DNA of 64,000 nucleotides, from assembly GCA_963845755.1 (NCBI GenBank), contig CAWJTV010000039.1, positions 160,001 to 224,000 of the forward strand, written 5' to 3'. Below are positions 5,401 to 22,174 of the stretch, piece after piece (the first letter of the stretch is position 1; every line of letters starts with the position of its first letter). The notes beneath the pieces are model-generated. The model was not told the origin of the DNA, did no database searches, and worked only from the letters and a program-made list of their open reading frames with translations. The stretch comes from an uncultured Planctomycetota bacterium. GTDB taxonomy: Bacteria > Planctomycetota > Planctomycetia > Isosphaerales > Isosphaeraceae. The position numbers were made by a program, and so were the translations under genes.

Positions 5401-7285
5401 TCAATCGCTATCCGGCTGCCGGGAGACGGTTCGGACGCCGATCCGGGTCGCCAACCGGATCTTCTGACGGCCGGGCAGCGCCTTGATGTACTGGGATCGC
5501 AACGCGCCCAGCCATCGCATTTCGCGCCCCTCGTAACTTACGATGACCTGGGTGAGTACGGGACCGGGGCAAGCTAGGGCGCGCTGGATACCCTGGAGTA
5601 CATCGGCATTACTGGCGATCTGGTTGAAGGTCAAGCCGACCGACTGGGCGAATGCCGCGAAGTCGATGCGGGCGATGTCGGTGGCGGTGGTGCGGCGGTA
5701 GACGGGCTCCTGGAGCATCTGCATGTAGTGATAGGCGCCATCGTCGAAGACGAAGAACTTGACCGGCAGGCCGGCCCGGGCGGCCGTGGACATCTCGATG
5801 GCCGACATCAGGAAGCAGCCGTCGCCCGTGACGCAGACGACCTGACGATCCGGGCAGACTCGCTGCGCGCCGAGGGCCGCCGGGATCGCCCAGCCCATGC
5901 TCTGGTTGTTCGCCGGGGTGAAGTAACGGCGCGGGGACTGGACCTCGATGGTTTCGGACGCCCAGTGAGTGGATGCGGTCACGTCAACGAATATCAGCTC
6001 CTCGGGACCCAGCCCGGTCCGCAAGTTCCCGAGGAAGAACAGCGGGTCCACGCACGGCTCGACCCGGACCGTGACCGCCTCACACCGGTCGAACCTGCCG
6101 CCACTTGTGGATATCCTGCCAGAGTTTAGGGCAGGGGGGGCGTCGGATCGCACCGCCGTCGGCGAGGAGCCGGTCGAGGAAGATGCGGGCATCGGCACAG
6201 AGGCATACATGCGTGGGCACGTTTCGGCCGAGGTTCTGCGGGTTGATGTCAACGTGGATCAACGTCCCCGGCTGAGGGATGGCGTAGTTGGCCGTCGAGA
6301 CCTCGCTGTAGCGGACGCCGATGGCCAGCACGAGATCGACGTCGCGGAACGCCGCCTCGGCGGCGCGGGTCCCTTGCCGGCCATATCCCCAGCCGACGGC
6401 CAGGGGATGCGCATCGGGGATGCACCCCTTGCCGCTGACCGACGTGGCCACAGGCGCCTGGAGGAGCTCGGCGACCGCGGCCAGTGCGGGGGCGGCCTCG
6501 ATGCACCCCAGGCCCGCGTAGATCCCGACTCGCCGCCGACGGTCGGCCAGATGGGCGAGGGCCTGGCTATAGGCGGCCTCGTCGAAGGGCACGGGATAGG
6601 GCGGGGGAACCGGCTGGTCGTAGTCCCAAACCTCTTGATACAGGGGATACGGAATGATCACCGCGGCCGGTCCCGGCTCGCCCGATCGGGCCAGCCGGAA
6701 CGCCTGGAAGAGGGCGCCGGGGATCTCGGCCTGGTGCCGGACCTCGATCAGACCCTTGACGACCGGTCGCACGATGGCGGCATTGGCCAGCCCGTGCACC
6801 TGGCCGACGGGCGCGTGGGCCGAGCGATCGATGTCGGTAATGATGCCGACGACCGGGATGCTATCGTAGAGCGCCTCGCCGAGGCCGGTCATGGCGTTGG
6901 TCAGTCCGGGGCCGGGCACGACGGCGAAGGCACCCACTGCGCCGGTGGCGCGCGAGGCGGCGTCGGCCATCACGCTGGCCGAGAATTCGTGCGCGACCAG
7001 CAGATAGGGGACCCGGCGGGCCTTCAGGGCATCCCACAGCTCGTTGTTCTGGGCGCCGGGGATGCCGAAGACGCAGGGGACACACTCGCAGGCCAGTGCG
7101 GCGGCGACCGCCTGGGCACCGGTCATCTTGCCCTGTACGCCCGAGCGTTTTACGAATCGGCCCAGCTCGACCGGGCCGGCCCGCGCCGTCGCGGGCGGTC
7201 CCCCGGCGAGCGCCGCCACGGTCGCGATCGCCCCCGCCGCGCCGCCTGCGCCCAGGATTTCCCGCCGGTTGACCTGCGGTGACAC
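5401..7285 (-). CDS. Thiamine diphosphate-dependent enzyme (acetolactate synthase large-subunit-like) with twin-arginine leader; frameshift near 6085
   Basis: VFGIPGAQN, HEFSASVMA, VPGPGLTN, GDGCF ThDP motif; N-terminus NRREILG. Confidence 0.85.
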
Positions 7286-7440: not shown

Positions 7441-7725
7441 TAGAGCGCTTTACCGATGGGTTGCGCACGCAAACAGCGGATCTTCTGCGGCCTGAAGGGC
7501 CGCCGGAGCCCAGCCCGGGGTGGAAACCCCGGGACTCGGTCGCACCGCCCCGACGGGTGCACCCTGAAGGGGTGCTGGCGGGGGTCTCCTGCGGCCCTAC
7601 AGGCCGCTCGGATGCGGGTTTGCTGTCGGACCCCGGGTTTCACCCGGGGCTGGGCTCCGGCGGCCTTTCAGGCCGCAGATGATCGGCTAGCCTCGTGTGC
7701 GCAACGCAAGCGTGATGCGCTCTAA
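7441..7725. repeat. Long nested palindromic repeat (CCTGAAGGGC...CCTTTCAGG family)
   Basis: TTAGAGCGC...GCGCTCTAA termini and an internal ~45-bp inverted arm pair. Confidence 0.8.
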
Positions 7726-7926: not shown

Positions 7927-8817
7927 TCAGGCGACGACGCAATCGCGGCCGTCGCGCTTGGCTTGATAGAGCCGCTCGTCGGCCCGCTTGATCAACTCCA
8001 GGGGGGACACGACATCGTTCCCCTGGATCGAGGCCACCCCCAGGCTGATCGTGACCTCGTACTCGCGACCCTCGAAGATGAACGGCTGTCTCTTCACGGT
8101 CCGTCGGAGTTGATCGGACAGTGCGGCTGCCGTGGCCTGGTCCGCTTCGGTCAGGACCGCCACGAATTCCTCGCCGCCGTAGCGGGCCAGCAGATCGTCC
8201 TTGCAGATCTCCGACCGGAGGCGGCCTGCCAGTTCGCGCAACGTCAGGTCTCCGGCCAGGTGGCCCATCGTGTCGTTGATCGACTTGAAGTGATCGATAT
8301 CGAAGAGGATCAGGGCCAGCGGTCGGCTGTACCGCGCCGAGCGGTCGATCTCCCGCTGGAGGTAGTCCAACAAGTAGCGCTTGTTGTACAGGCCGGTCAG
8401 GGCGTCGAGGATCGCCAGCCGGTACAGCTCCTCGTGGTATTCGGCCTCAACATTGCCGCCGGCCAGGAAACGATACAGGCAGTTGCCGACGCGGACGTAG
8501 TCGCCATCGGCCAGGGGAGTCCGACGCGCGGGCGTGTCGTTGACGAAGGACCCGTTGGTGCTGTCCAGGTCCGTGACGAGATAACCGTCGATGTCCAGGT
8601 CGAACCGCACATGGCGGCGCGAGACCGAGTGATCGACCACGGTGATATCACAGTCATCGCCGCGGCCCAGGACGATCGTTTCGTTCCCCAGGAGGTGGCG
8701 GGTGCCCATGGCCAACCCGGTCGGGTAAATATGGACCAGGCAGGCATTCCTGCAGGTTCGGGATAGAGGTCGCTTCGACTCGACCTGCTGCGTCACAGGC
8801 TGGATTCTCATGGCCAT
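7927..8817 (-). CDS. FHA-domain diguanylate cyclase
   Basis: FHA (LGR...SVSRRH...DLDSTNGSFVN) plus GGDEF (DALTGLYN, DIDHFKSIND, RYGGEEF). Confidence 0.95.
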   Translation of the reverse strand: MAMRIQPVTQQVESKRPLSRTCRNACLVHIYPTGLAMGTRHLLGNETIVLGRGDDCDITVVDHSVSRRHVRFDLDIDGYLVTDLDSTNGSFVNDTPARRTPLADGDYVRVGNCLYRFLAGGNVEAEYHEELYRLAILDALTGLYNKRYLLDYLQREIDRSARYSRPLALILFDIDHFKSINDTMGHLAGDLTLRELAGRLRSEICKDDLLARYGGEEFVAVLTEADQATAAALSDQLRRTVKRQPFIFEGREYEVTISLGVASIQGNDVVSPLELIKRADERLYQAKRDGRDCVVA

Positions 8818-8921
8818 CCCTCACACCCAACGGCCGATGCGGAACGCTTCCCTCCGGATGACCGACCGATCGAGCCCAGTGATTGTGGTGTCCCCACCCA
8901 AGTCTAGATCATGAGTGGCGA

Positions 8922-10607
8922 TCAACGGCGGGGATAATGGGGAGAGTAACCACTTTCCGGGGCGTGGAGGGCGAACCAGACCGATTCCCCAACCCCGCGC
9001 GCCTCGATGGAATAGATCCGTTCTCGGGTGCGGAAGAAGGCGTCGATGACGGCCCGATCCCACTGGCGATCCCGGCCGAGGGCCAGGTTCTGTTCAATCT
9101 GCTCGCGTGCCAGCGGGGCCCGGTAGGGACGGGCCGTGCTCATGGCATCATAGCTGTCCGCGACCGCCAGGATCCGCGCCAGCAGGGGGATCGATTCCCC
9201 TTTCAGGCCGTGGGGATATCCCGTGCCGTCATAGCGCTCGTGGTGAGAAAGGACCGAAGGCAACAGGTGGGAAATCCCGCCGAAACCCTCGAGGATCCGG
9301 CATCCGATCAGGACGTGCTGGGTGATCTGCAAGAATTCCTCGGACGTGAGCGACCCGCGCTTGCCGAGGACGGAATCGGCGACGCCGATCTTGCCGATGT
9401 CGTGGAGCAGGCCGGCGAGGTAGACGTCCCCCAACTCCGCCTCGGGCAGACCCAGCTCGCGAGCCAGCTCGACGGCGACCCGCGCCACGCGTTCGCTGTG
9501 GCCGCACGTGTACGGATCCTTGGCGTCGATGGCCGCGGTCAGGGAGCGGACCAGCCCCGCGAAGAGGTCCTGGACCTGGGATTGACGGCGCGCGCTGCGC
9601 GCGTGCAGTCCCAGCAGCGACGCGAAGGGCCTCAGGAGGGCCAGGTCGATGCGACGGAAGGGGACGATGGCCGGGCCATTGCTGCGAGGCGGATAAGGCG
9701 CGGTGGCGGGTCGTTCGGCTCCCGCGGCCGGCCCGTCCCGTTCCGGCGATCGATCCGAGGGGGCTTCTTCGTTCTTGTTCAGGGCGATCAGCCAGCCGCC
9801 GGCGTTCTTGTCAACGACGGACAGGGCCATCAGGCTGATGATCCCCGGGAACCGATCTCCCAGTCCGCTCAGCGGGGCCTCGTTGAGGATCAGGTATCCC
9901 GAGGGATCCCACTCGGGGTTTCGCGCGATCCATCGAGCCAGCTCGCGGCTATCCCGGGCGGAGGGACGGCGGGCTCCCTGGATGACGACCGTTTCGCTCT
10001 CCTGCGATGGCACCCAGATCAGAGTCTCCGCGCGAAGCAGGGCCGCGGCTCGCCGAAGGATGCGGTCCGGATCGGTGCTCGATATCCCGGGGCTTCCCAG
10101 GCTGGTCAGGAGGTCGGTCAGCTCCCGAGACCCCTCCAGGAGGGTCTTGAGCTGCTGAGCGTGGAGCGGGTCGCTCCGGTGCGGCATCATCGAGCCGCCC
10201 GTGAACGATAACCGGGAGTGGACCGCCTGGAGCCATTTCTGGATGCGTGCCTGCTCCAGACGAGCGGCCTGAGCGGTTCGGGCCAGGGCGGGGAGGTCGC
10301 CGATCGCAACCAGCGTCGTCCCATCGGCCTCCTGGATCGGCAGCACCAGCCGAAAGCACTCGACGCTCCTGAGGCTGACATGGGGTCGTCCCTCGGCGGC
10401 GATCGCCAGGATTTCCGGCGAGACGCCTGGCTGGGGCGCGGCCGGCGATCCGCTCGCATCCCCGTCGCCGAGTGGCTCTCCGGTCGAGCCATCGTAGAAC
10501 GAGAAGGGCGTGGAGAACTCTTCATGCAGGGCCAGGGATAGCGCCTTGACGCGATCGTCCGTGATCGTGCGGCGGTCCCGGACAACGGGGTTACGGAGCC
10601 CTAACAT
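8922..10607 (-). CDS. HD-GYP c-di-GMP phosphodiesterase
   Basis: DAKDPYTCGHSERV, LLHDIGKIG, HHERYDGTGYP, ILAVADSYDAM; true end may be 8821 via a frameshift. Confidence 0.9.
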   Translation of the reverse strand: MLGLRNPVVRDRRTITDDRVKALSLALHEEFSTPFSFYDGSTGEPLGDGDASGSPAAPQPGVSPEILAIAAEGRPHVSLRSVECFRLVLPIQEADGTTLVAIGDLPALARTAQAARLEQARIQKWLQAVHSRLSFTGGSMMPHRSDPLHAQQLKTLLEGSRELTDLLTSLGSPGISSTDPDRILRRAAALLRAETLIWVPSQESETVVIQGARRPSARDSRELARWIARNPEWDPSGYLILNEAPLSGLGDRFPGIISLMALSVVDKNAGGWLIALNKNEEAPSDRSPERDGPAAGAERPATAPYPPRSNGPAIVPFRRIDLALLRPFASLLGLHARSARRQSQVQDLFAGLVRSLTAAIDAKDPYTCGHSERVARVAVELARELGLPEAELGDVYLAGLLHDIGKIGVADSVLGKRGSLTSEEFLQITQHVLIGCRILEGFGGISHLLPSVLSHHERYDGTGYPHGLKGESIPLLARILAVADSYDAMSTARPYRAPLAREQIEQNLALGRDRQWDRAVIDAFFRTRERIYSIEARGVGESVWFALHAPESGYSPHYPRR

Positions 10608-10638
10608 CTTGATTTCCCGAACAGATTGGTCGCCGGTG

Positions 10639-13600
10639 TCACGGCTGGGGTGGAGAAGGGGTTGAGGCTCCGGCCACATCCTCGGAGTCCGTCCCGAGCG
10701 ATTTCGCCTTTGCCATCCGTCGCGAAAACCGGGGATCCCGCCGGAGCACGGCCAGGTCGGGATCTTCATCGGCCCTCGGCCCGGAGCCGAGGGACCAGGC
10801 CCGTTCCAGGAGATCGAACGCCTGGTCGAGGGCACGAGGAGACGGGGCGGCTTCCGCCGCCCGGGCCGCGACGCACGCGGCCGCATAGAGCGTCTCGCCG
10901 GACCCGGGCTCGCGGTCCAGGCACCAGTTGATATCCCGGGTGGCACGGTCCCAATGGCCCTGTCGGGACAAGACCACCGCCCGATAGCGCCGGGCCTCGA
11001 TGAAACCCGGGTTCGCCGCCAGGGCCTGGTCGAAGGATCGACTGGCCGAGGCCAGTTCCCCGCGATTCATGGCCAGCATCGCGCGGCCATAGTGGGCCTG
11101 GGGCTGTTGAGGATCCTTGCGGAGCACTTCGTCGAAGGCGGCCTGCGCCCGCTCGGGCAGGCGAGCGGACACGGCGAAGCCGTAAGTCCAGTTGATGCGG
11201 ATGCGCCGGGTCGGATTCCGGCACCATCGCGAACGCCTGGCGGAACGCCGCGTCGGCCTCGGCGTGTCGCCCCACCCCCTCCAGGGCGAGGCCCCGGCCG
11301 GCGACGATCGCGGCGTCAGCCGGCCCGTCGAGGGCGAGGGCCCGGTCGAAATCGATCAGCGCCGGCCCATACTGCCGGAGCTCCACCCGGGCGAGGGCGC
11401 GATTCGCCAGGGCGGCCACGAACCCGGGGTCGCATTTCAGGGCAGCCGTGTAGTCGTTGATGGCGTCGCCCTTCATCCCCATGCGGTCCAGGACGGCGCC
11501 CCGATTGAAATGACCCCAGGGGTGCTCCGGCCACAGGCCAGTGCAGGTGCCGAAATCGCCGAGTGCCTGGGCATACTCGCCCAGTTCCAGGTGGCAGATC
11601 CCTCTCTGGAGGGCGGACCAGTAATGCCGCGGTTGGAGGTTCAGGGCCTCGTCCAGCTCAGCGATGGCCCTGCGGTATCCGTCGCCGCCTCCCCGCCGTG
11701 CGTAGGAGATCGCCAGGAGATAATGGTCCTGGGCGCTCGTGGCCGGGATCGTGTCGGCCCGGTCCCGGGCGGCCCTGGCTGGCTCGGTCTTGCCGAGCTG
11801 GCTCCAGTAACTGGCGCGGTCGACCCAGAGCGCCTTGGAGGGTTCCAGGCCGTGGATCGCCTCGGCCTCGTCGAGCAGTGCGAGCGAGCGGACCAGCGTT
11901 GGCCGATCGCCCGGGGCCAGGCGGACGCGGGCCCCCGCCAGGAGCAGGAGCAACTCGCGATGGTCCTCGGCGACCTGTCGGCGATCCTCCGGCGCCAGCC
12001 GCCCCCAGTCCGGATGCGCCTCGTCGAGCCGGCCGTCCGGGGACCGGTACAGGGCCAGCGTCTGCTCGCAGACGGCGATCCCCTGATGCAGGTGATTGCG
12101 ATGTCCCAGGATCGTGTTGACCAGGCATAAGGCGCGGATCGTGCCGGCGTCGTGGGCGCGCTTCCGTCCCTCGGCCTGGGCCTGCCCCAGTCGCGTGCTG
12201 GCCTCGGCCAGGTGCGATTGGGCGCCGATCAGCGCCACGCCGGCGACCAGGAGGGCCGCCAGCGCCGCCCCGAAGACGGAACCCGATGTCATCAGCCGCG
12301 GATGGCGACGGAAGAACTTTCGAATCCGATCCACCCGGCTCAATTCCGGGGCATATCTCAGCGGGCGGTCGTCCAGGAAGCGGCGCAGGTCGTCGGCCAG
12401 ATGGTCGCCCTGCTGATAGCGCCGCGCGGGATCGGGGTCGAGGCATTTACGGACGATGCTCTCCAGGCTCCAGGGGACATCCCGCCGGACCTGCCGCAAG
12501 GAGGGGGCTTTCTTGTTGCGCTCGACGGCCATCGTCTCGATCTGGGTGGTGAGGGCCGAATAGCTGGCACCCTGTTCGAACAGGCGCTCGCCGGTCACCA
12601 TCTCGGCCAGGACCAGGCCGAACGAGTACAGGTCCGACCGCCGATCGACGCTCCGGATCAGTTCCGAGGTGCGGTGCAGGAGGGCGGCGAGATGTTCGGG
12701 GGCCGCGTAGGCCACCGTCCCGCCGAGGATGGCGACGGTGTTGTCGGATGCCATCTCCTGGGCCACGTTGAAGTCCAGCAGGAATGGCTGCCCCTCGGCG
12801 CTGAGCAAGATGTTCGACGGCTTGATGTCCCGGTGGAGGATCCCCCGCTGATGGGCGTGATGGAGTCCCTCGGCCAGTTGGGCCGCGATCCACGCGACCG
12901 CCTTGTAGTAGCTTAGCCCGCGCAGGAAGGCCAGGAGGGCTTGCGCCTCCGGCGGCGGCTCCTGGGCGGACGGTCCGGACCGATCGACGCTCCCCGGCTG
13001 TTGGCTCACCGCCGTCGGCAACATCGGGGAGCCGATCGACTCGAGGGCCTCGACCAGTTGCGCGCCGTGGATCGGCGGCACCTGCCCATCCCAGAGCCGT
13101 TCCAGGACGCTGGAGAGGGTCGCGCCGCCGAAATAGGGCATGCAGACCGCCCGGAGGCCGGCTTCCTGATCCTCGTGGACCGAGAAGATCGGTACGATGT
13201 TGGTGTGCTGCAACCGGGCCAGGGTCTGGTGCTCGGTCCCTTCGGTGGCGGAGATCTTCAGGACCACGGGGCGACAGGCCAGGTCGCACTGCTCGGCGAG
13301 GTACACGCTGGCGAAGGCGCCGCGGCCCAGTTGATGGCGGAGGCGGAAGCCGAAGAGTTCCTCCCCCTCGGCGACGAGCCGCATCAGTCGTTCCTGGGTC
13401 CGTCTCCTCGCGCCCATCGTGCGGATGAGGTCCTGGTGCCGCACCAGGGTGCCCAGCATGCGGGCGTCCTCGGGTACGCGGTCCTGGCCGTCGTCCGGGC
13501 GAGGCGCCTGCCCCGGCTTCCGACGCAGGAAGACCTCCGCGACGAGCTGGCTGGCGACCCCCGTGTCGGTCGCGGGGTCGACCGGCCTGGGCTCGAGGTC

Positions 13601-13696
13601 ATGTTCTGGCGGAGGCGTGGCCTCCGCGGCGTCGGGCTCGGAGGACCGCATCCTCCAGGTCTGCGTGTGATCCGCCCGTGCCGATCGTTCGCTCAT
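10639..13696 (-). CDS. Membrane Ser/Thr protein kinase with TPR repeats; frameshift near 11200
   Basis: LGRGAFASVY, VVLK, HRDIKPSN, DFN, GGTVAYAAPE; hydrophobic segment then TPRs; ATG overlaps upstream stop. Confidence 0.9.
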
Positions 13697-16600
13697 GCCT
13701 CGACCCTCCTCATCGCCGCGGGCCGGTGCCGTCGCAGGATCATGCCCGGCCTGGCACAACTCCGCCTCTCCACGCGGCGTCCATCCCGGTGGACGAGCCC
13801 GCGACATCGCGCGTATACCGCCAGGGCGACACCGGTGAATGCGAGGATCAAGCCCCGGGTCCGCTCCCCATCGGACTCGCTCGGCGGCTCGGATTGGGCG
13901 TCGCTCGGCTTCGCGTCACTCGGGGGCGTGCTCGACTGCGCCTCGCCTCGGGGTTCAGGGATCGGGAACGGCTGTCCTTCGACCTCCCCGATCCCGGCGG
14001 CGAGCCGCCATCGAGAGCTCCCCGATCCCGGCGGCGAGCGCCATCGAGCGCTTCCCCAGGCGAGCCAACAGCACTCCACAATCCGGAACCGCGATCGTCG
14101 GGTACTTGACCGGCCCGGGTTCGCTGGGAGTCGCAGCGACCTCCTGGCCCGGTTCGAGCCAGCTCAACGAGGTGCTCACGACGATCAGTCCGGCCATCGC
14201 GGCAGACTGCGAGGCGGACGTGTTCGACAGGGCGAGTTGAGCCGTGGCCGTCGAGGCGAAGCTCGGGGCGACCACGCCGCCCATCGGGCTGGCGGCCAGG
14301 GCGACCACGTCCGTGGAGGTCACGCCGTAGGTAAGCGGGTCACCCTGGAGCTGGGGCGGGATCGCGATCGCGAGAACGGCCGAACTCGGCGCGATCGTCG
14401 AGGGATCGGTGCCGGTGGACGGGGGATCGACGGGGGACGGGCCCGTCACCGGCGGCGGAATCACCGGCGGCGGAATCACCGGCGGCGGCGGGGTCGGAGA
14501 CGTGGGAGGCGCGACGCTACTGAGCTGGATCGCGACCGCGGGTGCCGAGCCCGAGACCAAGGGCGGCGCGTTGTCGTTCTCCGAGCTGAAGGTCAGGCTG
14601 ACCTGGTAGGAGATGTTGGCCGCCTGCTGCTGGTTCCAACCGGATACCGTGAGTTGATAGGTCCCGGGGGCGAGATCGCCATACATCAGCGTCCCGCCGA
14701 ACGAGTTCATCACCACGCTCTGCCCCGAAGCATCGGTCAACGACAAAGCGGCCACCGCGGGCAGGTTATCGCCCGAAAGCGTGAACGTGTAATTCTCGCT
14801 CATGAGGACCTGGAACTGGTACGCGTCCTGCGTATCCAGAGGTGCCTGGCTGGGGTCCTGGCTGAAATCGCGCGTGATGGTGACCCCGGCCGCGAGCTCG
14901 TTCGGGAAGAGGACACCAAGGTCCTGGGGCTGGCCGTTGTCGTCGTTGAACGGCTGGGCGCTCCACTCCAGGGGGTTCCCGTCGGTCCCGCGCGGGGGCG
15001 CGTTGACGGTGAACGGGACCACGTAGTCGCCGCTCGGGTCGTTGCCGACGAGCGGATTCCCGCCCAGGTCGGTCAGCCCGGCGGCTCCGGAGAGGTGGAG
15101 CTGGTAATCGCCGTTGGGCAACGCGTCGAGCATGACGAACGTGGCCTGATTGGTCGCGGAGTCGTAGGACTCGAAGCGCGGGAGGTACTTGGTCCCGTCG
15201 GCCGCCTCGACGTAGATTCCCGAGATGTTGTCCTGGGAGGTCACCTGGTATGTCTCGTAGGCCAGTTGCGCGATGTTCATCGGCTCGTCGAACGTGACGG
15301 TCAGTTGCGACGGGGGCTGGGTGAGGGTCGCCCCGGGGCTCGGGGTGGTCGTGACGACATGGGGGGGATTGGGGGCCGGTTGGACAAGCAGATTCAGGAC
15401 GTAAGGGCCCGTGCTCGAACCGAGCGAACCGCTGTGCGAGACGGTGGGGTCGAACAGGCCGGGGGTCCCGGGAGGGAGGCCCTCCAGGGGCGAAGGTGTG
15501 TTCGAGCCGCTGGCGACGGCGACGTAATAATCGCCCGCCGTCAGGCTCGCGAACAGGGCGGAGTCGGTGTACAGCGGCGTCGAGAACCCGTCGGTCGTCG
15601 TCGCGGGATCGTAGGTATTGTTATCGCCCGCGACGAACTGGAGGCTGTTATCAACGGGATCGAGTTTGAACAGGCTGACTCCGGGATCCAGCGGCGAGCC
15701 GATGCGACCGGCGAAGACCTCCGCCACCATCGCGTAATTCCCGGTCCCGGTAATGGTGAAATGATACATGTCCACCTGGTTGCCGGGGTTGCTGGGATCG
15801 TAGGGCCAGTTGAAACTTGACGGATCGGGGAAATTGGCGGGGTTGTAGAACGGGTCGTCGCCGATCGTGCCGGCGACCTGCACCAGTCGGCCCGAGGTCA
15901 GGTTGCCCAGGTCCTGGGCGGTGGCCGCGGTGTCGTCGACCGGGGCGTCGGCGCCGGTGCGGCCCTCGATCCCGTCGACCTGGAACGGGATCGTGATGTC
16001 CTGGCCCTGGGGATGGGCGGCATCGGCCCCGAGGTCGTTCCCCGAGGGGTCGGCAAGTGCCGGCGAGCCGTTCGACGCTCTGGCCGGTGAGGAGCACCTC
16101 GTAATAGCCGGGGGCCAGGGGGCTGGCCGGGAAGAGTTGCAGCTCGTTGACGCCCTCGTAGTGCAGGATGACTCCGGAAGAATCGCCGCCCCACGGGGGC
16201 AAATCCTCGACCGCCGAGGGGAAGTTGACCGACCCCAGGGAGACCTGCTGACCGTCCTGGTCGAAGGCTCCATCAGGGCTGTAGACCAACTGCACCGTCT
16301 GGCCGTTGAGTACGGTCCAGGGATCGAGTGGACCGCTCATTTCGATCCGGATCGCCAGCGGCGATGCGCTCAGGATGGCGCCGGGTGCCGGATCGCTGGT
16401 CAACACCTGCGGGCCGGTGGCCGGCGCGAGCCCGGCATCGGAGACGAGGAGGCTGAGGACGAAATCGCCAGTGCTCCCCGGGAGGCCGCTGCCGGCCAGG
16501 AGTGGGTTGAAATGAAGGTTGCCGTCGCCGCTGACGGCCAGATAGTACGTCCCGATGCCCAGCAGTTCATTGAACGAGGCGACGCCGCCATCGGTCTTGC

Positions 16601-17270
16601 CATCGACCTGCGCCAGCAGGCGATGGCCGTCCGGGTCGTAGGGGTCCCCGAAATCGTAGGGGTCGTTGTTGAACAGGCTGATGACCCCGTTGAACGACGA
16701 GGACGGCTGCTGTCGCATGAGCTCGAAGTTGACGCGGGCGGGGCCATCGAGCGTGAAACTGTACCATTCCACGTCGACGGCGCCCTGGGGACCGTTGCCG
16801 ATGGAGCCGTACTCCTGAAGCCCCGTGCCGGTGCTGAGATGCCCCAGGTCGATGGCCTGGTCCAGGGTCTCGTTGGGCAGTTCGGCCGGTCCGATGAGGG
16901 GGCTTGTTCCGAGGGGCGCCGCCATCAGGCTCCTCGACTCGAGCCGCTCGAATCGCAGCCGCGCGGCGTTCCGGCGCGATGGCCACGGCCTCGATGAGAG
17001 TCGAAATCCTCGCAGACCGCCCGGTTTTGACACTCCTCGCTCAACACCACCGCCGGTTGCCTCCTCGTTCCCACGCTCCGCGTGGGAATGCCGTCTGGGA
17101 CGCTCCGCGTCCTCTTCCCGGACGGAGACCAACGACGCGACGCGGAGCGTCGAACCCGGCATTCCCACGCTCCGCGTGGGAACGAGAGTGGGCCGCCTTC
17201 TTCCCGTGGTGGTGTTCGGCGAGGAGTGTCCCGGTTTTCGCTCGATTGCAACCACCGGTGATGGCCTCAT
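13693..17270 (-). CDS. Large surface protein with LExRxLL-type motif, PPC/Ig-like domains and C-terminal membrane anchor; frameshifts near 16070 and 14000-14080
   Basis: RLRFERLESRSLMA; DVEWYSFTL and VDMYHFTIT PPC-like repeats; Pro-rich linker; GLILAFTGVALAVY plus basic tail; alternative GTG start 17033. Confidence 0.75.
17064..17186. repeat. REP-like palindromic element CTCGTTCCCACGCTCCGCGTGGGAA...
   Basis: 123-bp element with terminal inverted repeats; partial copy near 62203. Confidence 0.85.
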
Positions 17271-17415
17271 AATCGGCTGCCTTTAACTCGGATTCCTGGC
17301 GAGAAGACCGGGAGAATTCGGTGCGATCGGGGCATCGCGTTGGGGTCGGATCGGGATGTTAATCCGCGGCCTCGCGACCGGGGACCACCCCGAGCGGTCC
17401 CCGTCCGTCGCCGCT

Positions 17416-19512
17416 TTAGACCTGGATCGTGATCGGGTCGACCGCGATGCTGAAGACGCCGGCCTGGTTGACGGCCTCGAAGGAGAGCCGATGGCGACCC
17501 GGCGTGAGTGCGGGGCTGCTGAACGACCAATTCCCCGCGGAATTGACCGAGGCGATCCCGATGATCAGGCCGTCCTCGATCACCACCACCTGGGAGTTCG
17601 CCGTCGCGGTCCCGCTCAAGCTGGGCGTGGCGACGGTATTGAAGGACCCATCGGGGTTGGTGCTGAGGATGCTGGCGGCCGTGAGGCTCGCGCTCGAGAC
17701 GGTCGCGGCCGGCGCCGACCAGGGCGGCGGGAGCAGGCTCACGGAGTAAGTCGCCGAGGGGCCGCTCACGCTGCCGGCGACGTCGGTCGCCTGGGCCGTG
17801 ATGGCGTAGGTGCCGCCGATGCCGAGGCTGGCCAGGGGGGTAGAGAAGTTCCAATCCCCATCCGCATTGGTCGTGGTGCTGCCGATCGCCGTCGATCCCC
17901 AGTAGAACGTGACCTGACTATAGGGTTGTGCGGTGCCGAACGCGAACGGATTGGCCGAGGTGGTGGTGATCGTGGTGCCCGTCATCGTGCCGGGGCTGAT
18001 GCCCGTGACAATCGGCGCCGGCGTCGGCGCGGTGTCGATCATCACCGCATAGGGAAGCGAGAAGGGGCTGACATTGCCGTACGGGTCGGTCGCCGTGGCG
18101 GTGATGGCGTAGGTGCCGTCGGGGAGGGCCGTCCCCGTGTTGTTGAACGTCCAGGTGTTGCTGCTGTTGGCCGTCGTCGTGCCGATGGGGGACCCGTTGT
18201 CGTACACCGTGACGGTCTCGCCGCTGAGCGCGGTGCCCGAGATGGAGATCCGGTTGACGTCGGTGATGCCGTCGCTGTTGCTGAGGCCATTGTCGGGGCC
18301 GATGCCCGTGATGGCCGGCGTCGAGCCGGACAGGCCGAATCCGTACTGCGCCTGCCCGCCCCCCGCGTGCAGCGGGGTGCCGTTCGGATAGGCGATGATC
18401 GGCGAGGCCTCCGTGGGCGGGGTCGTGCCGTTGAAGCTCAGGCCCAGGGCATAATCGCCCGTGCTGAAGACGGACGTGTCGGCGCCCTGCACCTCGATGT
18501 AGTATCGCTGGCCGGCGACGGCATTGGGGAGGGTCACGTTGAGCGTCGTGCCGTACTGGCCGAGGCCATTGGCCGAGCCGACGATCGTCTGCATGTCGGA
18601 GGCGTAGACCGTTACCTTCGGCGACAGCAGGCTCAGGCCCTGGCTCTGCACCGAGACCTCCATCGGGCCGGACATCCCCGCCGGCGTGTCCACGCTGAAG
18701 AATTCCGGCTGGCCGAGGTTGGCGATGTCGAGGTTGTAGGCCAGGGCGGTGAGTGTGCTCGGGTTGATCAGGCTGTCCAGGTTGGCCGCCGTGAGGACAG
18801 TGGCGTTGAGGCCGGCGTAGGCGTCCGGAGCCCGCGCCCCGCCGTAGAGGCTATCGATGCCGACGATGTCGTCGGCCGCCAGGCCCTTCTTGATGCCGTT
18901 GTAGACCGGATACATGGCGTTGCTGGCGGAGGTGCTGCTCTCGCCCAGGCCCAGCGCGTGGCCGAACTCGTGCATCGCCACGGTGGCCAGGTCGTACGTC
19001 TGACCGATGTTCCAGGCCGCGCCGGTGTTGAACTCCATGTCGCCGGCGATCGAGAAGTTGTTGATCGACGGCGGCAGGTTGGTCCAGGCCAGGGTCGAGC
19101 TCTCGAAGTTATAGCCGCCGATGCGGATGTCGCCCATGCCGGGGTCGCCCTCCTGGTAGTTGCCGCCGCCCTCCGGCGCCCCGTCGTCCGGGACGACGAC
19201 GAGGTTGATGTTGGTCTGCTTGGCCCAGACCTGCGCGGCCTGGAGGATCTGATTCTCCCAGCGTCCGGCCAGATAGGGGTTCTTGTTGAAGGTCGAGAAC
19301 AGGTTGCTGGTCGTGCCGTTGCCAAGGCTGGTCCCATCCGGCATGAAGCTGATCGTGACGACCTGGGGGTTTATCCAGGCACCGCCGGTGGCCGAGTAGA
19401 GCACGACTCGGGACTCGAGCTGCTCGAGTCCAGGCCGGCTTCTCCGAGACTGAGGGCGCTGGGCCGAGCGAGCCGCCATCCGCTTTTCGAACCAACGTTG
19501 AAGCGATTTCAC
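17416..19512 (-). CDS. Matrixin (M10)-like metalloprotease with C-terminal Ig-like repeats
   Basis: LEQLESRVVLY; GDIRIGG; DLATVAMHEFGHALGLGES...AMYP Met-turn; ATATDPYGNVS and AQATDVAGSVS Ig repeats. Confidence 0.85.
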   Translation of the reverse strand: MKSLQRWFEKRMAARSAQRPQSRRSRPGLEQLESRVVLYSATGGAWINPQVVTISFMPDGTSLGNGTTSNLFSTFNKNPYLAGRWENQILQAAQVWAKQTNINLVVVPDDGAPEGGGNYQEGDPGMGDIRIGGYNFESSTLAWTNLPPSINNFSIAGDMEFNTGAAWNIGQTYDLATVAMHEFGHALGLGESSTSASNAMYPVYNGIKKGLAADDIVGIDSLYGGARAPDAYAGLNATVLTAANLDSLINPSTLTALAYNLDIANLGQPEFFSVDTPAGMSGPMEVSVQSQGLSLLSPKVTVYASDMQTIVGSANGLGQYGTTLNVTLPNAVAGQRYYIEVQGADTSVFSTGDYALGLSFNGTTPPTEASPIIAYPNGTPLHAGGGQAQYGFGLSGSTPAITGIGPDNGLSNSDGITDVNRISISGTALSGETVTVYDNGSPIGTTTANSSNTWTFNNTGTALPDGTYAITATATDPYGNVSPFSLPYAVMIDTAPTPAPIVTGISPGTMTGTTITTTSANPFAFGTAQPYSQVTFYWGSTAIGSTTTNADGDWNFSTPLASLGIGGTYAITAQATDVAGSVSGPSATYSVSLLPPPWSAPAATVSSASLTAASILSTNPDGSFNTVATPSLSGTATANSQVVVIEDGLIIGIASVNSAGNWSFSSPALTPGRHRLSFEAVNQAGVFSIAVDPITIQV

Positions 19513-19842
19513 GACATCCCCCGATGTGATGGTGGATTCGGGCTGAGGACTTGACCGAGCTCGCAAGCGGCGACCGGGAACCATTCCTTGGCCGGGCCGA
19601 TGACAGACATCGGCGGGCGGAGGACTGCCGTCCGGCCGAGTGCGAGGCGTCCCCGTGATGGAGAACGACCGGCGTGTGATCCCCGGACCGGACTACGTCC
19701 ACACACGCGACGATCGTGATTCAGGGAGGAGACGACGGGCTTCACCGGAACAGCCTTCTGGTCTCAGGTCACCGAGCCGAGGGGTGGACGACGAACCGTT
19801 CAACCGGATTCGTCCACGAAACGCCCTTGCTTGCTGCTCAGT

Positions 19843-19935
19843 CCTTCGGCAACCTGGCAAGCCGAGAGACGTTGAAAGGCTCTCGGCCCCATGGCTTTGC
19901 GTCCCCGCCTTACGACGGGTTTGCCCGTGCGAAAG
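19843..19935 (-). ncRNA. Cyclic di-GMP-I (GEMM-I) riboswitch
   Basis: Minus strand: CUUUCGCACG-GGCAAA-CCCGUC-GUAA-GGCGGG-GACGCAAAGCC...GCCGAGAG/CUCUCGGC...GCCAGGUUGCCGAAGG; all hallmark motifs and a GNRA loop. Confidence 0.9.
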
Positions 19936-21976
19936 ATGTGGAGATAAGGGTAATCCTCATCCTCACTCCAACCCTAGCCCCCCAACCGGGCGCCGTCCGG
20001 CTCCGTTGAGCGGACACACCGACGCGTCGCGGTAACGCAACACGACCTTGCGCGGATCCGCCTCGAAAGGCGGCCGGGCGGGCGAAGCGAGCCTCGTCGG
20101 AGACCCGGTTCATCGGCCCGGCTTCATGGGGATTCCTCCGCGCGCGCCAGACCTCAATGTGGCCGAATCGGGCTTCGAGGCGATAGTGCTTCCGGATGAC
20201 CTCGGTCAGGCGTGCGAGGTTGAGATGCGACGGGTATTTGTGCGAGTCGGGCGCCCAAACGACGATCGCATCGCTGGACCGCTCGAGCACGGCGGCAAAC
20301 TCGGGCTCCAGGTCGATATGGACCATCAACATCCAGCAGATTCCCGACTCGGCGAGGAAGGGAGACAGCCTCGCCGCCGGCCCGTTGATCGCGGGGAAGG
20401 GCGCCTCCTTCAAGACGTTGGCCACGGGCGTCGTGGGGCTGGTCGTCGCCCGGAGATGGATCAAGACGCGCCGGTAGTCGTCCCACGAGTACCAGCGGCC
20501 GTAGAGGAGCCCGAACCAGTTGGCGCTCCCCGGCGGGCTCCAGGTCGGCAGCATCTCGCCGCGCACCAGGGACCCGAGGGCACTGCGGGTTGCGTTGACG
20601 TCGCAGTAACGGGGGAGTCCCTGGCTCATCTCGGTGATCAGCGCGAGCAGGGCGATCAGACGCAGCATCGGGGCAATCTTCGCGCGGTCCGCGATCCAGG
20701 CCATGGGTGTCGCCAAGGCGACCGTGCTGACGAGCATCTGAGGAAGGAGCAGGTAATAATGCTGGACCGGATGAATCGAGCGATAAAGCAACGCCGCCGC
20801 CAGCGCCAGCGCCCAGGTCGCGGCCCGGCGGCGAGACGCGCCTCGAGTCGAGAACAGGACCAGGATCAGCAGCCCGCTCACGATCAGGGTCGGCGGCTCT
20901 TGGAACTGGACGGCGATGACTTGCGCGAAGGTCGCGGTATCAGCCCGGTGGTACGGACCTCCGTAGGCGGCGATCCTCAGCCCGCGCACCAGGTCATCGG
21001 CGATGCCGGCGATCACCAGGGGCGAAAAGGCGAGGGCGGTGAACGTCGCGAAGGCGAGGGTCCACTCCGCGAGGGATCGGATGAAACCCGCGCGAGGGCC
21101 GGTTCCCGCCGGCTCGGTGTCCGGTCGCGCGATCCCCTCGGCGATCGCCGCGAAGAAGGCCGGCAGGAATAGCAGCACGTGGGGACGGATCGTCAGGGCG
21201 ATGGCGGCCAGCAGGGCCGAGACGATCCGGCTCGTCCGGCCCGGCCACGCCTGGAGAATCAGGAGGCCCAGGACCACGCACAGGCTCGCGTGCCAGTCGC
21301 GCTCGGCGACCGTCTGATAGTCGAGGTTCAGATAGAAGGTCAAGAACGCCAGATAGGCCGCAACGCCGGCGAAGCGACCGCCCAGGCATCGCCGGCTCCA
21401 GGCGGCCAGCGTCACGCCCAGGAGCACCAGCGCGGCGGCGTCGACGGCGTAGAGCGCCCAGGTCTGGCCCCATCCGGCCACGCGTCCCAGGAGCCAGAAC
21501 AGATAAATGGCACCCGGGAAGTTGTAGCCGCGGATGTCGCGATAGGGCAGGATGCCGGCATCCCACGACTGGGCGATGGTGGCGAAGGTGTCGGAATCGC
21601 GAAACCACGGCCAGAACAGGTAATGTGGCACCCACGTCGCCAGCAACCCCACGCAGGCCGCGACGATGGCGATCGTCAGACCGCCGGCCATCGCGGTCGC
21701 CGCCAGGCGGTCCAGCCCATCCAGCCCCCAGCGCAGGGGATCGGCCGTCGGCCGGCCGGCCTCGCGACGACCGGCCAGCAGCCGGCCGACCGCGTAGATC
21801 GCCGCCAGCCCCAGGAGGTTCCGCGCGAGCCAACGTACGCGCAGCTCCTGCGGAAAGTACCACAGGATGTCCGTGGCCGTTATCCACAGGACGACCACGA
21901 CCGTCCCCGCCAGCGCCAGCCCCGCGAACACCAGGACCCGCCGAGTGGCCGCAAGGACCCCGTCCCGACCGGCCAT
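19910..21976 (-). CDS. Polytopic membrane protein, ArnT/PMT-like (GT-C) glycosyltransferase
   Basis: WFRDSDTFATIA...LPYRDIRGYNFPG, AERDW, many TM helices; 3' end may be over-extended. Confidence 0.65.
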   Translation of the reverse strand: MAGRDGVLAATRRVLVFAGLALAGTVVVVLWITATDILWYFPQELRVRWLARNLLGLAAIYAVGRLLAGRREAGRPTADPLRWGLDGLDRLAATAMAGGLTIAIVAACVGLLATWVPHYLFWPWFRDSDTFATIAQSWDAGILPYRDIRGYNFPGAIYLFWLLGRVAGWGQTWALYAVDAAALVLLGVTLAAWSRRCLGGRFAGVAAYLAFLTFYLNLDYQTVAERDWHASLCVVLGLLILQAWPGRTSRIVSALLAAIALTIRPHVLLFLPAFFAAIAEGIARPDTEPAGTGPRAGFIRSLAEWTLAFATFTALAFSPLVIAGIADDLVRGLRIAAYGGPYHRADTATFAQVIAVQFQEPPTLIVSGLLILVLFSTRGASRRRAATWALALAAALLYRSIHPVQHYYLLLPQMLVSTVALATPMAWIADRAKIAPMLRLIALLALITEMSQGLPRYCDVNATRSALGSLVRGEMLPTWSPPGSANWFGLLYGRWYSWDDYRRVLIHLRATTSPTTPVANVLKEAPFPAINGPAARLSPFLAESGICWMLMVHIDLEPEFAAVLERSSDAIVVWAPDSHKYPSHLNLARLTEVIRKHYRLEARFGHIEVWRARRNPHEAGPMNRVSDEARFARPAAFRGGSAQGRVALPRRVGVSAQRSRTAPGWGARVGVRMRITLISTSFARANPS

Positions 21977-22174
21977 GACTCCACTCCGAATCCGAGGATC
22001 GTCCGCCCTTCCACCCTTCGGCCATTCTCCCGAGGACGCAGCACACGCCCCGCGCCGGGTTTCCTGCGGGCGTTCCCAGTGTAGCATGGCTGCCCGGAAA
22101 ACGTCCGGCGTCGCCGGTCCATCCGGCGAGGTCATGGACTCGCTCGGGTCGATCCGACGATCCTCCTCAACATC

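Follow-up and report, generated by a model that had tools for sequence, protein, structure and literature searches.

A conserved planctomycete gene set that may connect a membrane kinase and cyclic di-GMP turnover to a probably riboswitch-controlled matrixin-like protein

We analysed a stretch of 64,000 nucleotides (nt) from the genome of an uncultured member of the Isosphaeraceae (Planctomycetota; assembly GCA_963845755.1, contig CAWJTV010000039.1, positions 160,001 to 224,000; hereafter the window), in which the list of open reading frames (ORFs) and Pfam matches place five minus-strand genes behind a cyclic di-GMP (c-di-GMP) riboswitch. In 5'-3' order these encode a matrixin-like protein with immunoglobulin (Ig)-like repeats, an anchored PPC/Ig-like protein, a kinase with tetratricopeptide repeats (TPR), an HD-GYP phosphodiesterase and an FHA-GGDEF cyclase, separated by gaps of 160, -4, 31 and 104 nt. 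An original prediction, made from the letters of the window, had described a c-di-GMP-I riboswitch heading five co-oriented genes, and Rfam and Pfam bear this out. The features of the locus are the following.

19970-19977, minus strand: conserved motif immediately upstream of the leader; 11 of the 12 leaders that were aligned have it almost unchanged.
19940-19963, minus strand: weakly conserved 5' hairpin before the aptamer (six consensus pairs, changes mostly one-sided).
19844-19934, minus strand: c-di-GMP-I riboswitch aptamer (RF01051, 66.2 bits against a gathering cut-off of 35; RF03167, 62.8 bits against a cut-off of 59).
19512-17416, minus strand: matrixin-like protein (M10 fold) with PPC-like and Ig repeats (Pfam PF00413 and Big_13).
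About 17255-13693, minus strand: PPC-like/Big_5 repeat protein with DVUA0089 family domains (NF038127 in an intact orthologue).
17029-17230, strand not assigned: miniature inverted-repeat transposable element (MITE) of 202 nt with 11-nt terminal inverted repeats and an 8-nt target duplication.
13696-10639, minus strand: Hanks-type Ser/Thr kinase with one predicted membrane helix and a TPR array (Pfam Pkinase and TPR).
12221-12277, minus strand: predicted transmembrane helix of the kinase, residues 474-492 (Kyte-Doolittle 19-mer mean 2.45).
10607-8922, minus strand: HD-GYP phosphodiesterase (HD_5) with HD, HHExxDGxGYP and RxYR intact.
8817-7927, minus strand: DgcB-type tail-FHA-GGDEF cyclase (FHA and GGDEF domains, GGEEF intact).
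8782-8793, minus strand: Thr9-Gln-Gln-Val12 in the N-terminal tail of the cyclase, predicted phosphorylation site and ligand of the protein's own FHA domain.

Across the range covered, the family and a sample of its class, 26 of the 121 family genomes carry the anchored protein, as do 29 of 401 class-sample genomes, seven of these being strong matches in a second family; a broader contig scan gave at least two loci among the matches listed. We mapped 33 family loci. The metagenomic locus L084 duplicates G015, L106 looks error-rich, and neither is counted as independent. The kinase gene directly follows the anchored-protein gene in 32 of the 33 (the remaining locus ends at a contig end), often through an ATGA or GTGA overlap, and a matrixin gene precedes the pair in 28 of the 31 loci with visible upstream DNA. 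Downstream of the kinase we found a full HD-GYP and a cyclase (n = 6), a truncated HD-GYP and a cyclase (n = 2), a cyclase only (n = 10), an HD-GYP only (n = 11) or neither (n = 2), and two loci are cut at this point. The set is conserved but not fixed, with all five full-length genes in six of the 33 loci; in G083 all five are present, on two contigs. The genome of the window (G000; 14.3 Mb, 88% complete) holds a second cassette, L010, with neither cyclase nor riboswitch. Several loci are rearranged. L067 has two matrixin genes with a riboswitch before each, and these and the cyclase point away from the anchored-protein/kinase pair. In L093 and L095 the cyclase is likewise divergent from the pair, and riboswitch and matrixin come after the kinase in L093 and converge on it in L099. 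The cyclases of L067, L093 and L095 form a second lineage, on a different branch from that of the window. Because the order recurs across genera and the parts still co-occur after rearrangement, their association is more than chance.

The Rfam c-di-GMP-I covariance model recognizes the aptamer well above its cut-off, as had been expected, and finds no other match in G000. The score also passes for RF03167, but we rejected the label of a GGC variant: at a position that is G in the GGC consensus and A in that of RF01051, the aptamer carries A and so is of the ordinary c-di-GMP type. In the numbering applied here to the aptamer, the canonical pocket G/A/C (G20, A47, C92) is present here and in 19 of 20 printed family aptamers. 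The L061 (G143) aptamer has U at the position read as C92, possibly a specificity variant or a sequencing error. Roles of the three pocket nucleotides are described in PMC5888326. Riboswitch matches occur in 19 of the 121 family genomes; 19 of the 21 matches directly precede a matrixin gene, and the rearranged loci repeat this position in five cases (two in L067, and L092, L093 and L099). Since both the matches and the rearranged cases point the same way, the matrixin gene is the conserved target, and, judged by its sequence, the riboswitch very probably binds c-di-GMP and regulates that gene. The two matches placed elsewhere (L076:6716-7270 and L077:14444-14761) precede small ORFs without a Pfam match, in which we noted by eye what are presumably PilZ-like motifs; in L077 a protein with weak RTX-like repeats comes after the small ORF. 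Both riboswitches of L067 (4922-5089 and 3212-3300) have a long repeat insertion in the P3 loop, and the Rfam match persists. Of the leader elements, the motif at 19970-19977 is possibly a -10-type promoter element by its sequence; its extended form occurs three times in G000, and it had no match in a sigma-70 scan, which performed at chance level. Predicted accessibility of the ribosome site with and without the locked aptamer changed in no consistent direction in 11 leaders.

The five genes might also form one transcript, in which the riboswitch would feed back on cyclase, phosphodiesterase and kinase. They share a strand and the short gaps given above, and no intrinsic or U-tract terminator was found on the minus strand within the set by a scan that performed at chance level. 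Among loci with a visible matrixin gene, 13 of the 15 that have a cyclase also have the riboswitch, compared with 3 of the 13 that lack one (bare counts from kin genomes). The window cyclase is without the inhibitory-site Arg, like 8 of the 16 copies that could be read, which would permit feedback at the gene level. The rearranged loci speak otherwise, the kinase lying beyond reach of the riboswitch in L067, L093 and L099 and the cyclase too in L067 and L093. Tandem matrixin genes have a riboswitch each (L038/L080, L067), the cyclase cassettes L004, L022, L035 and L036 have none, a translation-level switch would touch the first gene only, and a review notes that such riboswitches are rarely found in control of c-di-GMP enzymes (PMC6366702). 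Because the riboswitch tracks the matrixin gene in rearranged loci, feedback on the expression of the cyclase itself cannot be the conserved core, and we consider feedback on the whole set rather unlikely. The self-contained circuit of the original prediction is retained as one conserved module, whose riboswitch follows the matrixin gene and not the operon.

Coupling of the anchored-protein gene to the kinase gene had been proposed from an ATGA overlap, which is real (13696-13693) and recurs at a near-identical junction in the intact G105 copy. The anchored protein combines an export motif, a long low-complexity stalk and a C-terminal hydrophobic-plus-basic anchor, the last found in 96 of 111 homologues of at least 950 amino acids (aa). 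Its structural model (pLDDT, a predicted score of the local distance difference test, 81) contains PPC-like sandwiches similar to the collagen-binding domains of collagenases, with an Ig-like domain between them, all as local matches only. A Pro-Pro cleavage site like that of PPEP-1 substrates was considered as a family feature and rejected, the stalk not being conserved. In the window kinase the Gly loop, catalytic Lys, HRDxKPxN, Mg-binding Asp and APE are all present; the HRD motif is found in 38 of 45 kinase ORF rows, six of the misses being frameshift fragments, and G015 encodes an intact orthologue of 1,023 aa. The predicted helix sits after the catalytic domain, and 37 of 39 pattern-matched kinase ORFs reach a Kyte-Doolittle value of 1.6 there. 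The TPR array beyond it is predicted to lie outside the cytoplasm, a location that its six conserved Cys would fit. On balance we lean slightly towards the anchored protein and the kinase acting as one sensing unit.

The best match of the cyclase in the Protein Data Bank (PDB) is DgcB (6hbz; residues 26-292, E 9e-50). Its FHA pocket residues (G-R, S-x-x-H, T-N-G) are intact and the tail motif T-x-x-V/I is present in 19 of 19 cassette cyclases; by analogy with DgcB, the enzyme is in all likelihood switched by phosphorylation of its tail. The RxxD inhibitory site reads CKDD in the window (Arg to Cys, common to close relatives), with Arg kept in 8 of 16 readable copies; this loss is a regulatory difference and does not define the tail-FHA-GGDEF architecture. 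A full HD-GYP accompanies the cyclase in four of eight loci without the Arg versus one of eight with it, in loci that are few and related. G000 has about 276 kinase-like loci. A tree of the kinase TPR region unites 19 kinases in one clade (SH-aLRT branch support 99), all with a cyclase downstream, against 0 of 12 in the sister set; our trees come from quick searches not run to completion and are rooted at the midpoint, that of the kinase omits L039 and L071, and the order of events is unproven. Because every kinase of this clade has a cyclase downstream, the neighbouring kinase is a good candidate for the enzyme that acts on the cyclase tail, and we think it fairly probable that it does. Cyclase orthologues at E <= 1e-60 lie in the cassette in 19 of 19 family genomes, and of two weaker matches the one that was fetched lies outside it.

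It could also be that the genes are co-regulated, the kinase acting on the HD-GYP or on the cytoplasmic tail of the anchored protein and another kinase on the cyclase. Links of the kinase family with HD-GYP genes are much more widespread than those with the cyclase, and stand-alone cyclases exist. Several HD-GYPs beside cyclase-less kinases (L021, L024, L025, L031, L034, L037, L038) were seen by eye to start with M-x-S-T-(V/I/L), a possible kinase site of Ser-Thr-hydrophobic type that is absent from the window HD-GYP. Such a division of labour is nonetheless improbable in our view, given that family orthologues of the cyclase are linked exclusively to one kinase clade, that 12 of the 19 loci of this clade have lost or truncated the HD-GYP and kept the cyclase, and that a second, rearranged cyclase linkage exists in another lineage. 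The earlier proposal that phosphorylation tunes the cyclase gains the DgcB precedent and the matching features, although the pairing of kinase and cyclase is not obligate.

The intact motifs of the HD-GYP correspond to the set HD, HHExh(D/N)GxGYP and RxY(K/R) given in bioRxiv 2021.11.05.467447; a PocR/GAF-like N-terminal region is a lead (ESM Atlas features score 0.96). Related genes are much more widespread than the cassette: profile searches picked up matrixins of greater distance in 115 of the 121 family genomes and a related kinase-TPR in 92. Among 20 paralogue loci that we fetched (14 chosen for matrixin-kinase proximity and six on the kinase alone), the kinase is divergent from an HD-GYP gene in 14, including all six kinase-chosen loci, and matrixin, short PPC protein and kinase stand together in six. 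Seven add an ExeA-like ATPase, a polysaccharide tyrosine-kinase-like gene and a CarH-like MerR/B12 regulator (NCBIfam matches below cut-offs), the regulator being divergent from the matrixin gene. The link of the kinase family with HD-GYP and matrixin/PPC genes is therefore family-wide, its surroundings suggest functions at the surface or in the matrix, and the matrixin gene has had its regulator exchanged. The HD-GYP appears to be the older output of the kinase family, and cyclase and riboswitch look like later additions. Individual paralogue loci carry further genes. In G000 itself, L011 (C28) has a kinase-TPR divergent from an HD-GYP with an extracytoplasmic-function (ECF) sigma gene downstream, and L012 (C11) has a weak PEP-CTERM protein, a matrixin and a short PPC gene in a row. 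L115-L119, L121 and L122 represent a larger locus that recurs: besides the divergent HD-GYP and kinase-TPR it has the ATPase and tyrosine-kinase-like genes, an unannotated protein of about 530-600 aa, and the CarH-like regulator divergent from matrixin and short PPC genes. Some of the larger loci encode an Ala/Pro-rich repeat protein, and PEP-CTERM genes adjoin one of them.

The matrixin gene begins with GTG after a conserved ribosome-binding site. Its product was modelled at pLDDT 83, with karilysin and matrix metalloproteinases (MMPs) as best folds; the loop past the zinc motif is of low confidence (pLDDT 56). That motif reads HExxHxxGxxE in the window, and HExxH including the catalytic Glu is invariant in 27 of 27 aligned matrixin copies. 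In metzincins the third zinc ligand is His or Asp (HExxHxxG/NxxH/D; PMC11674741). Full membership in the metzincins or M10 was rejected at this ligand, which is Glu in the window, and we file the protein as matrixin-like only. Both it and the anchored protein show the planctomycete ExLExR export motif, visible N-terminally as RRxxxExLExRxL; PF07595 scores 17.4 for the PPC protein against a cut-off of 25.5 and gives no match for the matrixin. The motif is described as a planctomycete export signal of cell-surface proteins in PMC8567305, and the matrixin-like protein is likely exported. In a single record, P0058, matrixin and anchored protein are fused, and the second export motif is absent.

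Directly visible are which genes are present and in what order, their catalytic and phosphothreonine-binding motifs, their conservation and the gene that the riboswitch accompanies. From these we arrive at a reading that we hold to be evenly balanced: the locus would be a conserved module running from the membrane kinase through the cyclase and c-di-GMP to the riboswitch and the matrixin-like protein. Anchored protein and kinase would form the sensing unit; the kinase would phosphorylate Thr9 of the cyclase, turning it on and raising c-di-GMP, and the HD-GYP would reset the signal. The riboswitch would read c-di-GMP and set the level of the exported matrixin-like protein, which would trim or release the anchored protein and so close the loop. 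This last step, shedding or trimming in the manner of PPEP-1, we advance tentatively and expect a little less than the module as a whole. The process under control is probably attachment or remodelling of the surface matrix. A more ambitious version, doubtful at present, is a receptor system specific to planctomycetes: an exported Glu-site metalloprotease would clip a membrane-anchored co-receptor, this would switch the TPR receptor kinase, and the kinase would pass the event to c-di-GMP through interchangeable outputs (HD-GYP or DgcB-type cyclase), with an equally interchangeable regulator (the riboswitch or, in the older paralogues, a divergent CarH-like B12 regulator). If true, shedding would control c-di-GMP by way of a Ser/Thr kinase, and a DgcB-type cyclase would have its first cognate kinase. 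The idea of proteolysis as an input was already part of the original prediction; Glu in place of His or Asp as third zinc ligand weakens it, and proteolysis is unproven.

A number of observations weigh against the module as we read it, several of them at the matrixin-like protein. In 40 aligned rows, which count one gene twice, the third zinc ligand is Glu (n = 24), His (n = 12), Gln (n = 2) or Asp (n = 2), and the Met-turn Met, kept in the window copy, is replaced by Glu in six. Three cassettes (L005, L035, L036) lack the matrixin gene. The Pro-rich stalk of the anchored protein is variable and is Gly/Ser-rich in many copies, and because the export motif is described for cell-surface proteins (PMC8567305), the folded part of the anchored protein and the TPR part of the kinase may lie in different compartments. 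DFN replaces DFG in the kinase throughout the family, and the cyclase tail is without the Glu(-2) and Ser(+1) of DgcB. Eleven loci have kinase and HD-GYP but no cyclase; conversely, among five complete or near-complete genomes of other families that carry the cyclase type, none has the anchored protein and a kinase is at most distant, in two of the five. Finally, the related genomes are non-independent samples.

The ligand counts raise the prospect that the matrixin-like protein is no protease at all and serves as a metal- or ligand-binding surface protein, binding the anchored protein as adhesin or co-receptor; the remainder of the circuit would be unaffected. Glu or Gln as third ligand and the Met-turn Glu in many copies fit this role, as do the P0058 fusion and the poorly modelled loop. 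We judge it unlikely, about as much so as the clipping route above, since HExxH with its catalytic Glu is invariant, Glu can itself ligate zinc, His or Asp is present in 14 of the 40 rows and in 11 of 15 older matrixin paralogues, and the fold is that of karilysin and MMPs.

The window copy carries three frameshifts. The PPC-like gene lies in three reading frames, broken once near 16075 and once in the interval 13870-14100; the kinase gene lies in two, with a break near 11190; PPC-like copies of relatives are intact, with open frames of 1,132-1,329 aa. Proteins of relatives aligned to G000 at 47 loci gave 12 frame switches per 22,940 aligned residues (0.17/kb), which predicts about two per 11 kb against the three seen, so the frameshifts are probably assembly errors. 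Three DNA sequencing runs yielded short pieces of relatives only, none spanning the gene set. The MITE lies in frame (70 codons) in the N-terminal region, at the first codons, of the PPC-like gene; two copies of 98.5% identity occur elsewhere in G000 and none in the loci of relatives searched. The frameshifts and the recent MITE insertion, together affecting two genes, and the HD-GYP remnants of L016 and L017 could be taken to mean that this copy is decaying and non-working within a family system that is real. This is very unlikely: the frameshift count agrees with the genome-wide rate, the MITE is in frame, all catalytic motifs are kept, and a relative's contig lacks one base at 16071, weak evidence with 14 letters on one side.

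Several further features were noted. Elements of the same terminal-repeat family as the MITE occupy 12 places in G000; they measure 130 to 1,554 nt and have target duplications of 8-9 nt. A match to Rfam Acido-Lenti-1 at 7475-7690 (37.9 bits against a cut-off of 37) lies inside a palindromic repeat that G000 has at about 49 loci and is probably a repetitive extragenic palindrome (REP) or MITE, not a small RNA gene. Upstream, 19910-22135 encodes a multi-spanning membrane protein without a Pfam or NCBIfam match, whose frame passes over the putative promoter and reaches the first part of the aptamer; downstream, a thiamine pyrophosphate (TPP)-dependent enzyme gene at 5401-7285 lies in two frames, again a probable assembly frameshift. 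Neither flanking gene was seen in the other loci examined, and we place both outside the module.

Ser/Thr kinases number in the hundreds in planctomycetes, and for almost none of them is a substrate known. With a single kinase, threonine and enzyme singled out by this cassette, the step from kinase to c-di-GMP can be tested in vitro. It is also a first handle on c-di-GMP control in the Isosphaeraceae, where the riboswitches of this class that we found head almost exclusively one protease-like gene. The source of P0098, a member of the anchored-protein family, assigns it to Tautonia plasticadhaerens; this species is in culture, and a host for genetics may exist. The literature searched (titles, the starts of abstracts and passages of PMC7159879 and PMC10482364, with subscription papers mostly outside) gave no description of the cassette, in line with the original prediction, and no paper on c-di-GMP in the Isosphaeraceae.

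Among characterized systems, the closest to the cyclase is DgcB (Bd0742) of Bdellovibrio bacteriovorus, whose FHA domain binds the protein's own tail at phosphorylated Thr14 with Val at +3; locking of the tail activates the enzyme, and the 2019 paper states that its kinase was not identified (PMC6733907). The same paper describes a kinase-tail-FHA-GGDEF fusion in Sorangium, and GarA/OdhI with PknG/PknB, in which the FHA domain likewise binds its own phosphorylated N-terminal tail (PMC6733907). The window cyclase resembles DgcB (PDB 6hbz, 6hc0, 6hc1) in whole-length architecture, canonical FHA pocket, a Thr with Val/Ile at +3 and GGEEF. It differs in being encoded behind a membrane kinase in a conserved cassette, in the tail and inhibitory-site residues noted above, and in having a phosphodiesterase and not a phosphatase as neighbour. 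GarA and OdhI are likewise FHA matches of the window cyclase, and here the FHA domain would gate a cyclase, not metabolic enzymes.

On the riboswitch side, the protease PPEP-1/ZmpI of Clostridioides difficile, under a class I c-di-GMP riboswitch, releases the adhesins CD2831 and CD3246 (PMC6366702). There as here such a riboswitch directly heads a gene of zinc-protease type beside a gene for a surface-anchored protein. The window protein, however, has the M10 fold, a conserved Pro-Pro site and a sortase are missing, and kinase and c-di-GMP enzymes belong to the locus; with a different protease family and an unconserved stalk, we rejected membership in the PPEP-1/adhesin system and keep a comparison of how the two may work. 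For karilysin (PDB 2xs4), the likeness lies in the fold (TM-score 0.76 by target), HExxHxxG and, in the window copy, the Met-turn Met; Glu as third ligand in place of His or Asp, the planctomycete export motif and the PPC and Ig domains set the window protein apart.

In the LapA/LapG/LapD system of Pseudomonas fluorescens, the receptor LapD, the transglutaminase-like protease LapG and a large surface protein work together with type I secretion. Here too a protease under the control of c-di-GMP would act on a large surface protein with Ig repeats, but the cassette has no genes for LapD, LapG or type I secretion, and control would be exerted at the RNA level. Each part is of a known kind; what is new, to judge by the literature searched, is their conserved, modular combination from kinase to c-di-GMP.

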